A DNA stretch of 64,000 nucleotides from Janthinobacterium sp. (GCF_025356595.1 NZ_JANXSQ010000167.1); one strand, 5' to 3'; numbered from the stretch's first letter, positions 27,671-28,069 are shown. Notes: generated by a model from the letters alone, not told the origin. A program made the numbers and translations.

Positions 27671-28069
27671 TTACTTCGGCATGACCACGATGGTGCTGCC
27701 ACCGGTGCCGGTCTTGCCGGTGTTACCCGTATTGCCCGTATTACCTGTGTTGCCGGTGCGGCCAGTCGCGCCGGTGTTACCCGTGTCGCCGGTGTCGCCC
27801 GTCGCGCCGGTCATGCCGTCGGCGCCCGTGCTACCGGTATTGCCGGTGTTACCGGTGTTACCTGTGTTGCCTTGGTTACCCTGGCTGCCGGTGTCGCCCG
27901 TCGCGCCGGTGTAGCCGGTGTTACCTTGGTTGCCGGTCGCGCCTTGCGCACCGGTATTGCCCGTGTCGCCAGTATTACCTTGGTTGCCCTGCGGACCCAT
28001 TGGGCCGGTACAAGCGCTCAGACCGATTGCCGCGAGGAGTAGCAGTGCCGACATTGAATATTTTTTCAT
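27671..28069 (-). CDS. Collagen-like triple-helix-repeat lipoprotein
   Basis: ATG at 28069 with AAGGGA upstream. Lipobox LSAC. About 34 uninterrupted G-X-Y triplets follow (mostly GNT/GDT/GAT/GNQ), then a 9-aa tail GSTIVVMPK. Confidence 0.8.
27701..28006. repeat. Degenerate 9-bp/3-bp periodic coding repeat (GGY-AAY-ACC type) encoding the Gly-X-Thr tract
   Basis: Runs of ggtgttacc / ggtattgcc on the plus strand. The mirror ORF 27606..27914 reads PVLPVLPV. Confidence 0.85.

Follow-up and report, generated by a model that had tools for sequence, protein, structure and literature searches.

A predicted lipid-anchored, proline-poor collagen from Janthinobacterium, one of a large proteobacterial family

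Bacterial collagens are held to need a globular domain for trimerisation, and imino acids or charge pairs for stability. Scl1/Scl2 (SclA/SclB) and Lcl are charge-rich, surface-exposed proteins with a globular trimerisation or variable domain, to which Scl adds an LPXTG wall anchor. BclA, of the Bacillus exosporium, is made mostly of GPT triplets; it has a trimerisation domain of the C1q/TNF-like kind at its C terminus, bears glycans, and is fixed to the exosporium. In betaproteobacteria, collagen-like segments occur in envelope proteins of the Burkholderia Bucl group (Bucl8 and Bucl3, for example), some of them predicted lipoproteins (PMC4565658, PMC7682875). There, the collagen-like segment is short and sits on large domains (efflux OEP, Talin-like and others). 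Here we describe a gene within 64,000 nucleotides of DNA from Janthinobacterium sp. (GCF_025356595.1 NZ_JANXSQ010000167.1; 'the window', by which we mean the whole stretch) in which, instead, the mature protein consists of little more than the collagen run. Judged from its sequence, this gene is one member of a large, widespread and unstudied proteobacterial family of domain-less, lipid-anchored, proline-poor collagens that share a conserved hydrophobic tail.

Like Scl1/Scl2 and Lcl, the window protein is a (Gly-X-Y)n sequence without hydroxyproline, rich in polar residues, apparently anchored to the cell, and variable in repeat number. It differs in having a lipobox for an anchor in place of an LPXTG motif, which is absent, in having no globular domain, and in the scarcity of its charged residues (7%). 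The closest NCBIfam profiles are nevertheless those of SclB, SclA and Lcl, which match over the repeat only and far below their cut-offs: 61.1 versus 400 bits for NF038330, 66.8 versus 325 for NF038329, and 57 versus 500 for Lcl. With BclA the protein shares a Gly-X-Thr-dominated region and a strain-variable number of triplets, and PDB entry 1wck matched it, again over the repeat only. An initial annotation of this DNA had been reminded of the GXT repeats of BclA and their glycosylated Thr residues, but the hallmarks of BclA are absent here: the GPT repeats and the C1q-like C-terminal domain are missing, X is Asn, Ala or Asp, proline occurs in 2 of 35 triplets, and what we find in their stead is a 6-residue tail and a predicted lipid anchor in a Gram-negative host. 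The same annotation was right that there is no globular trimerisation domain. Pfam and NCBIfam scans of the window protein return Collagen and no other domain; only T21 precedes the run and only IVVMPK follows it, with no folded region in the AlphaFold2 (AF2) monomer.

The gene is real, and its layout is that of an independently transcribed, monocistronic unit encoding a lipoprotein with a collagen-like body (Table 1). The terminator and ribosome-binding site first ascribed to it are both there, and the Pfam Collagen profile (PF01391), proposed at the outset as a check, matches with 63.7 bits (cut-off 27.2; E=1.3e-17). No other run of eight or more Gly-X-Y triplets occurs in any frame of the window, and so this one is not a by-product of the window's GC content, 66%. 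Lipoboxes were assessed by a PROSITE-type rule that asks for a basic n-region, a hydrophobic h-region, and [LVI][ASTVI][GAS]C placed at residues 15–35; the n-region here is MKK, the h-region is hydrophobic, and LSAC follows, from which we infer that Cys20 is lipidated. The protein had been described as a lipoprotein signal peptide, about 34 triplets, and almost nothing else. The signal peptide and the uninterrupted run stand, but the triplets number 35, a threonine separates the cysteine from the first glycine, and six residues follow the final Gly-Ser-Thr. 'Almost nothing else' is not quite right, either, because the end of the protein, T(I/V)VV(V/M)P, had been overlooked and is conserved in 55–58 of 59 relatives.

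Comparison with a close relative indicates that purifying selection has maintained the gene. Janthinobacterium sp. CG3 shows synteny with the window, DNA identity being 88–90% in the flanks and 78% in the gene. Among 117 aligned codons there are 28 synonymous and 10 non-synonymous differences, for a ratio of non-synonymous to synonymous rates (dN/dS) of 0.12. The CG3 protein is 123 amino acids long and has 32 triplets versus 35, the two sequences differing by indels at three places, two of them of 2 whole triplets and one of 3, and a variant with a one-triplet (9-nt) deletion is present in run X3, from a related organism. Repeat number differs between relatives, then, as had been anticipated, and it does so invariably in register. 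The DNA is indeed the degenerate 9-bp repeat it was said to be (Tandem Repeats Finder, TRF: period 9, 25.8 copies, 65% matches). Since that repeat is merely 65% regular, the periodicity appears to be maintained at the level of the protein, and not through recent slippage.

Transcripts of family genes are present in three lineages. On the window itself, metatranscriptome contigs align at 27671-27799 (X47, 1 mismatch), 27804-28064 (X48, 95% identity) and 27843-28041 (X49), and none covers the intergenic region, 28073-28340. The gene of an Acidovorax radicis type (L027, 3917-4311) is matched at 99.7-100% identity by contigs from three unrelated runs, and that of a Variovorax type (L050, 3982-4338) is matched at 100% identity. 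With selection and transcripts both observed, the original supposition of a real, independently expressed gene is borne out. Expression far above that of neighbouring genes was considered and rejected: other genes of a 20-kb stretch are covered, too, and our claim is therefore limited to the presence of transcripts and does not extend to exceptional abundance.

The family was delimited in two ways. A protein search gave 445 matches, and among the best 120 of these, all metagenome proteins, 70 have a lipobox together with a short hydrophobic tail. A scan of one genome per species gave 389 relatives, and 59 loci were parsed among the best 79. Every one of the 59 encodes a single unbroken Gly-X-Y run, of 22–67 triplets (median 31, interquartile range 29–34). 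All 59 also have a lipobox signal peptide and a hydrophobic tail. The PROSITE-type lipobox rule is satisfied by 57, and the residue after the cysteine, position +2, is Thr in 54. The signal peptide is itself unusually conserved in sequence (MKYxxPSxLLLAxLGLGAC), and directly after the Cys/Thr comes, in nearly all members, a proline-containing start, TGP(M/A)GP(Q/P)G, most commonly TGPMGPQG (17/59). The tail reads GG(S/T)T-(I/V)-V-V-(V/M/I)-P followed by 0–4 residues, and is the family's sole conserved non-collagen element. Like the window protein, 14 of the 59 end in Lys. The lengths of the genome loci are confined enough to bring a molecular ruler to mind, a reading weakened by the metagenome sample, where proteins of the window's subtype span 14–33 triplets, and by outliers of 58–67. 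The family as a whole thus runs from 14 to 67, and a strict length-ruler role is unlikely.

Carriers include, in the Burkholderiales, Janthinobacterium, Rhodoferax, Acidovorax, Variovorax, Polaromonas, Giesbergeria and Herminiimonas; among other Gammaproteobacteria, Competibacteraceae, Methylobacter, Nevskia and Steroidobacteraceae; among Alphaproteobacteria, Nitrospirillum, Rhizomicrobium and Telmatospirillum; and, further afield, Desulfovibrionaceae and the cable bacteria, Candidatus Electronema (L020, L029 and L043). Their habitats include activated sludge, soil and sediment. Three subtypes can be told apart. Subtype A starts C-T-GPMGPQ, and the window protein belongs here: it begins C-T-GP(M/A)GP(Q/P), continues as one GXT/Q run, and closes with the GG(S/T)T-(I/V)VV(V/M)P tail (alignments A1 and A3). 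Subtype B starts C-F-S-L-P-A-GPAGPQ. Subtype C starts C-D/E-R-P-T-V-V-M-P-T-T-P-V-V-V-P and ends A-I-I-V-V-P-A-E-T-P-P-A-K (flanks TVVMPTTPVVVP and IIVVPAETPPAK), so that a TVVxP-type motif flanks both ends of its run. The run is shorter in these proteins (P0055, P0057, P0062, P0071, P0086, P0090, P0109 and others), at 16–19 triplets, and the residue at +2 is D or E. In Escherichia coli, D or E at +2 is a signal for retention in the inner membrane.

The family has probably been mis-started or missed by annotation often. Many of the metagenome gene calls (P0002-P0030) carry long spurious N-terminal extensions that run through the conserved 5' region, as in '...RGTEQTQ...AAYN..RGTIMKYS'. The exact window protein and six orthologs from isolates are absent from a collection of 15 billion proteins, which different start calls or missed genes could explain. 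A literature search found no paper describing this family of collagen lipoproteins.

What is unusual about the composition of the window protein is not quite what was first thought. In its 35 triplets, Y is T in 26 and Q in six, and X is N in 15, A in six, D in four, S in three and P in two. Y is mostly Thr, as stated, but there is nothing odd in this: Thr is the commonest Y residue of bacterial collagens, at 31.6% overall (PMC8968730). The near-absence of proline, also remarked on at the outset, is the genuine peculiarity, together with a near-absence of KGE/KGD charge pairs. The collagen run has two prolines and the mature protein three (2.7%; the family mean is 4.2%), and the only proline-containing triplets of the run are the pair at its start, GPM-GPQ. 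KGE/KGD triplets number 0, against a family mean of 0.14 per protein. With just 3 K/R, the mature part would yield few tryptic peptides and is easily overlooked in proteomes.

Do these proteins form a triple helix? Several features speak for it. Glycine is never interrupted in the 59 homologs, the indels between orthologs are of whole triplets only, and selection is purifying. In addition, X and Y are used quite differently: Thr accounts for 2.7% of X positions versus 62.7% of Y, and Gln for 0.9% versus 16.2%, whereas Asn (26.5%) and Tyr (10.5%) occur at X but are missing from the twelve most frequent residues at Y, outside which every residue stays below 0.3%. The preferred residues are, overall, N, A, Y, S and D at X, and T, Q and K at Y. 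The Persikov/Brodsky host-guest scale places Thr and Gln high among the non-imino residues at Y, and Asn close to the bottom. Usage in the family agrees with these propensities, and this counts for a triple helix. The scale is described in PMC7824840. The AF2 monomer, computed from a 55-sequence alignment, has a pLDDT (predicted local distance difference test score) of 42.7, below 50 across residues 28–122, and is an extended coil in which the helix of the signal peptide is the only secondary structure. Obligate trimers are beyond the reach of monomer runs, which are uninformative about the trimer; lacking a compact fold, however, the model gives no indication of an alternative monomeric one, such as a beta-helix or a polyproline-II bundle.

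The reading we prefer, to which we attach a probability of about 0.55, is that this is an outer-membrane lipoprotein in which lipid anchors and the hydrophobic tail take the place of a folding domain, allowing three identical chains to form a collagen rod some 30 nm long, which probably serves the envelope or the cell's tolerance of stress. What we infer from the sequence about the window protein—triple helix, trimer, outer-membrane location, role of the tail, and function—would fit together as follows. The protein would be exported by Sec and lipidated at Cys20, and then sorted by Lol to the outer membrane, a destination proposed because residue +2 is Thr and the E. coli rule would send it there. 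Lipid anchors lying in the plane of the membrane would concentrate three chains and set their register, and the helix would nucleate alongside, at GP(M/A)-GP(Q/P), the only imino-acid-rich triplets. From there it would zip through the Gly-X-Thr/Gln body of ~105 residues to form a hydrated rod, ~30 nm long (105 residues at 0.286 nm each) and ~1.5 nm wide. At the far end, three beta-branched tails, T-I-V-V-M-P, might come together as a small hydrophobic cap that clamps the free end or docks onto a partner. Such a rod could be plentiful and give the envelope structure or protection—as a hydrated brush, say, or a spacer, beneath the outer membrane—and may be linked to stress.

Stabilisation by lipid has a precedent in the synthetic peptide-amphiphiles of Yu, Tirrell and Fields (1996-98), short collagen runs in which trimerisation is driven by N-terminal lipid tails; in the 1998 work, lipid tails reportedly stabilised the triple helices of model collagens. 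The 1998 paper is among the references of PMC3505660. Subtype C also resembles the minicollagens of cnidarians, in which a short collagen run lies between short proline-rich segments. Minicollagens are eukaryotic, and differ in having Cys-rich domains. For neither architecture did a literature search turn up a characterised natural counterpart in bacteria.

Several considerations weigh against the rod, however. The usual stabilisers of collagen are scarce in the mature protein, with proline, KGE/KGD pairs and charged residues at the low levels given above; KGE/KGD clamps are anomalously frequent in collagens (PMC11923368). A domain of 105 residues lies below the plateau of ~150 at which the stability of bacterial collagens levels off (PMC7824840). 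The spread in length across the family implies that no fixed length is required. The +2 rule was worked out in E. coli, and the organisms considered here may not follow it. The genes next door in the window—DUF3422, PhoH2 (PIN plus PhoH), bestrophin and Bcp, with GST also present—yield no functional link. And the gene may be dispensable, a possibility hinted at by alleles of the Variovorax-type homolog (L050) that lack the collagen core. Two contigs from soil RNA assemblies join position 4017 or 4019 to 4306, an in-frame deletion that takes out the core of the signal peptide and the whole collagen run and leaves MKYAIPS(A)VVPPTR. Either they are alleles with a natural deletion, or they arose as artefacts of cDNA synthesis.

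Some of these same points would suit a protein that forms no triple helix at all, but remains a disordered, flexible, hydrated 'entropic bristle' tethered by its lipid, its periodicity a legacy of 9-bp repeat expansion. We consider this unlikely, but take it more seriously than any other rival. It would account for the very low proline, the near-lack of charge pairs, and a run of only 105 residues (PMC7824840); for the extended coil and low confidence of the AF2 model; and for lengths that vary from 14 to 67 triplets. Against it stand the 59 diverged homologs, which contain not one interruption of glycine, indels that respect the triplet, and a low dN/dS. Residue usage is, besides, strongly specific to X or Y, in line with triple-helix propensities. 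The DNA repeat is only 65% regular, as noted above, and the AF2 method, run on a monomer, cannot build an obligate trimer.

The protein might, alternatively, be displayed on the outside: it would be flipped to the outer leaflet, and perhaps O-glycosylated on Thr, to form a fibre or 'nap' like that of BclA or Scl, which could help the cell to adhere, to stay hydrated, or to hide from phages and predators. Those collagen-like proteins of bacteria that have been characterised do form fibres at the surface; the Thr-rich Y position resembles that of BclA, the nearest profiles are those of the Scl proteins and Lcl, and repeat number varies between strains, as it does in surface antigens. We think this improbable, nonetheless, and place it after the disordered tether. 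No partner gene for surface export (Slam, type II secretion and the like) or for glycosylation is conserved at the locus in any lineage, dN/dS indicates constraint and not diversifying selection, and the conserved neighbours in other lineages, described below, are periplasmic or outer-membrane proteins. The inner leaflet is, besides, the default location of proteobacterial lipoproteins.

A bolder version of the outer-membrane rod can be imagined, as well. Braun's lipoprotein, Lpp, is a functional analogue of a sort: like Lpp, the window protein is small, comes from a monocistronic gene and ends in Lys, and it is predicted to be a probably abundant outer-membrane lipoprotein that forms a homotrimeric rod under that membrane. 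Lpp, though, is an alpha-helical coiled coil of ~8 nm, not a predicted collagen helix of ~30 nm. No helix is predicted by AF2 outside the signal peptide, C-terminal K is a minority trait in the family, and the window protein is not a member of the Lpp family; the resemblance is an analogy, and peptidoglycan cross-linking is unsupported. These proteins might be natural peptide-amphiphile collagens in which a triacylated Cys in the outer membrane replaces the trimerisation domain, and in which a proline-poor rod of ~25–30 nm, hydrated through Thr and Gln, serves much as Lpp does, as a strut or spacer spanning the periplasm. The T-V-V-V-P tip would dock onto peptidoglycan, onto a partner in the inner membrane, or onto subtype C, anchored there, and the whole would constitute a new class of envelope architecture under a conserved, dedicated promoter. 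We offer this as speculation, and consider it improbable.

Folds other than collagen, built from polyproline-II or beta structure, seem to us very improbable. Regular arrays of Thr and Asn do recall a polyproline-II bundle like that of snow-flea antifreeze protein, or a Thr-faced surface for binding ice or minerals, and several related sequences come from metagenomes of cold freshwater or glaciers. The family is equally present in taxa of activated sludge, soil and sediment, however, the AF2 model contains no compact fold, and no turn-forming breaks occur in 35 triplets. Finally, that the open reading frame is spurious, or is phage-derived repeat DNA without a protein product, is effectively refuted by conservation: this high-GC genome does have many long spurious reading frames, PHROG tail-fibre profiles match the repeat, and the exact protein is missing from the 15-billion-sequence collection, but signal peptide, tail, Shine–Dalgarno sequence, terminator and promoter block are conserved across four classes, the syntenic ortholog is under constraint, transcripts exist, no phage genes lie nearby, and the PHROG matches, confined to the compositional Gly-X-Y region, were rejected as evidence of homology along with PDB matches to animal collagens.

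Upstream of the gene lies what is probably its promoter. Conservation extends over some 95 nt in 28 or more loci of beta- and gammaproteobacteria, and the upstream regions of 29 loci were aligned (alignment A2). The consensus begins TAAGCGCG-N4-CGAACAGAC-N17-TCAYAGTG-N4 and continues ATGCGGCC(TTTT)GGCCGCGTA-CAAC-N3-AAGAGGA-N5-ATG. Two sets of columns are invariant, AC-GA and the A-x-A-x-T within CAYAGT, and the latter is consistent with a -10 hexamer; 17 nt before CAYAGT there is a GAC core. We read the block as a probable promoter, with CATAGT as -10 and a -35 region within ACAGAT, accompanied by a site for a regulator. The window contains the pattern once, where chance alone would give 0 occurrences, and in the set of loci the word CG(A/G)ACAGA(C/T) is upstream of family genes in 20–23 of its 45 occurrences. 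A scan with the sigma-70 consensus found no promoter, and an Rfam scan of positions 27000-29000 returned nothing relevant, the block being without a match. Readings as a promoter for sigma-E (or another factor of the extracytoplasmic-function type), sigma-32 or sigma-54 were considered by hand and rejected, since the spacings do not fit: GAAC and TCA are 21 nt apart versus ~18 for sigma-E-type promoters, and the GG-N10-GC element is absent.

Between this block and the start codon, the aligned loci have a hairpin. Its 9-bp helix is 82.5% paired across the 29 sequences, versus 26–46% in slid controls, and compensatory double changes occur in 7 of the 9 pairs. The window's own copy folds no better than shuffled sequences (z = -0.1). 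At the Variovorax paradoxus-type locus (L050:3982-4600), all three contigs (X51-X53) start at -16 relative to the ATG, immediately downstream of the hairpin, and in X52 adapter sequence directly precedes that position, which could be a processing site, a stop of reverse transcriptase, or a true start of transcription. In the window, what is left of an alpha-amylase-like gene, a relic of its 3' end, is present at ~28191-28300, with the peptide ...LALVADNTWEASVNFDGQARQRFK still readable. Janthinobacterium sp. CG3 has an intact 575-amino-acid gene of this kind at the same position (L004:2172-3882), from which it follows that the lineage of the window has lost ~1.7 kb, up to a point shortly before the conserved promoter block.

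Gene neighbourhoods in other lineages are more suggestive than that of the window. In 10 alphaproteobacterial and Desulfovibrionaceae loci (Table 1), a PRC-barrel gene with a signal peptide is located directly upstream, across a gap of ~60–90 nt. BON-domain genes are near the family gene in six loci, the sole one that was translated being a lipoprotein, and LpxR, an outer-membrane lipid A deacylase, is near it in seven. Regulators of the two-component or LuxR type are nearby in eight loci, and Crp/FNR-like ones in six. PRC-barrel and BON proteins are typical periplasmic proteins of the stress response. Their presence in other lineages lends weak guilt-by-association to a role in the envelope or in stress, and the surroundings of the PRC-barrel loci, where genes for LpxR, BON-domain proteins and two-component regulators are often close by, may be an envelope-stress gene neighbourhood. 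In the window, a cluster of arn genes, for the modification of lipid A with L-Ara4N, occupies 31140-38465, ~3 kb from the collagen gene.

Table 1. Coordinates of the collagen gene and associated features (window positions unless loci are named).
Feature	Position	Strand	Basis
Collagen-like lipoprotein, complete open reading frame: ATG start, 132 codons, TAA stop	27671..28069	minus	Translation, Pfam Collagen, dN/dS
Lipoprotein signal peptide; lipobox L-S-A-C, Cys20 the predicted lipidated residue	28010..28069	minus	PROSITE-type lipobox rule
T21, position +2, between Cys20 and the first Gly	28007-28009	minus	Translation
Collagen-like domain, residues 22-126, 35 uninterrupted Gly-X-Y triplets	27692..28006	minus	Translation, TRF period 9
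C-terminal tail IVVMPK, after the last triplet, GST; with the preceding GGST, the family motif G-G-S-T-(I/V)-V-V-(V/M)-P	27674..27691	minus	Tail listing of 59 loci, alignments A1 and A3
Shine–Dalgarno sequence AAGGGA, 6 nt 5' of ATG; AAGAGGA in alignment A2	28076..28081	minus	Alignment A2
Strong intrinsic terminator: 12-bp GC-rich stem, 4-nt loop, U8	27588..27615	minus	z = -3.5
Terminator of upstream PhoH2 gene, separating it from the collagen gene	28343..28328	minus	
Conserved upstream block: CTATGCGCGC (28163-28154), CGAACAGAT (28150-28142), 18 nt, CATAGT (28123-28118)	28118..28163	minus	Alignment A2
Position of the family's conserved hairpin, just 5' of the Shine–Dalgarno sequence; weak and imperfect in the window	28090..28113	minus	Family covariation
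PRC-barrel gene upstream of family gene: loci L018, L019, L025, L026, L031, L032, L038, L044, L052, L055	~3350-3940 each		

What emerges is a family that lacks the trimerisation domain and the stabilisers thought necessary for collagen, yet is maintained by purifying selection across several classes of proteobacteria. Should its members turn out to be disordered tethers only, the gain would be a modest improvement in annotation. If they do form triple helices, then anchoring by lipid in a membrane, with the help of a five-residue hydrophobic cap, can nucleate collagen, and a hydration shell of Thr, Gln and Asn can alone stabilise it. Both would be useful to the theory of collagen folding, and to the design of minimal recombinant collagens. 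A long, rod-shaped lipoprotein would also join the short list of outer-membrane tethers and spacers, and it would do so in bacteria of environmental importance: Comamonadaceae, Oxalobacteraceae, Competibacteraceae, methanotrophs and cable bacteria.

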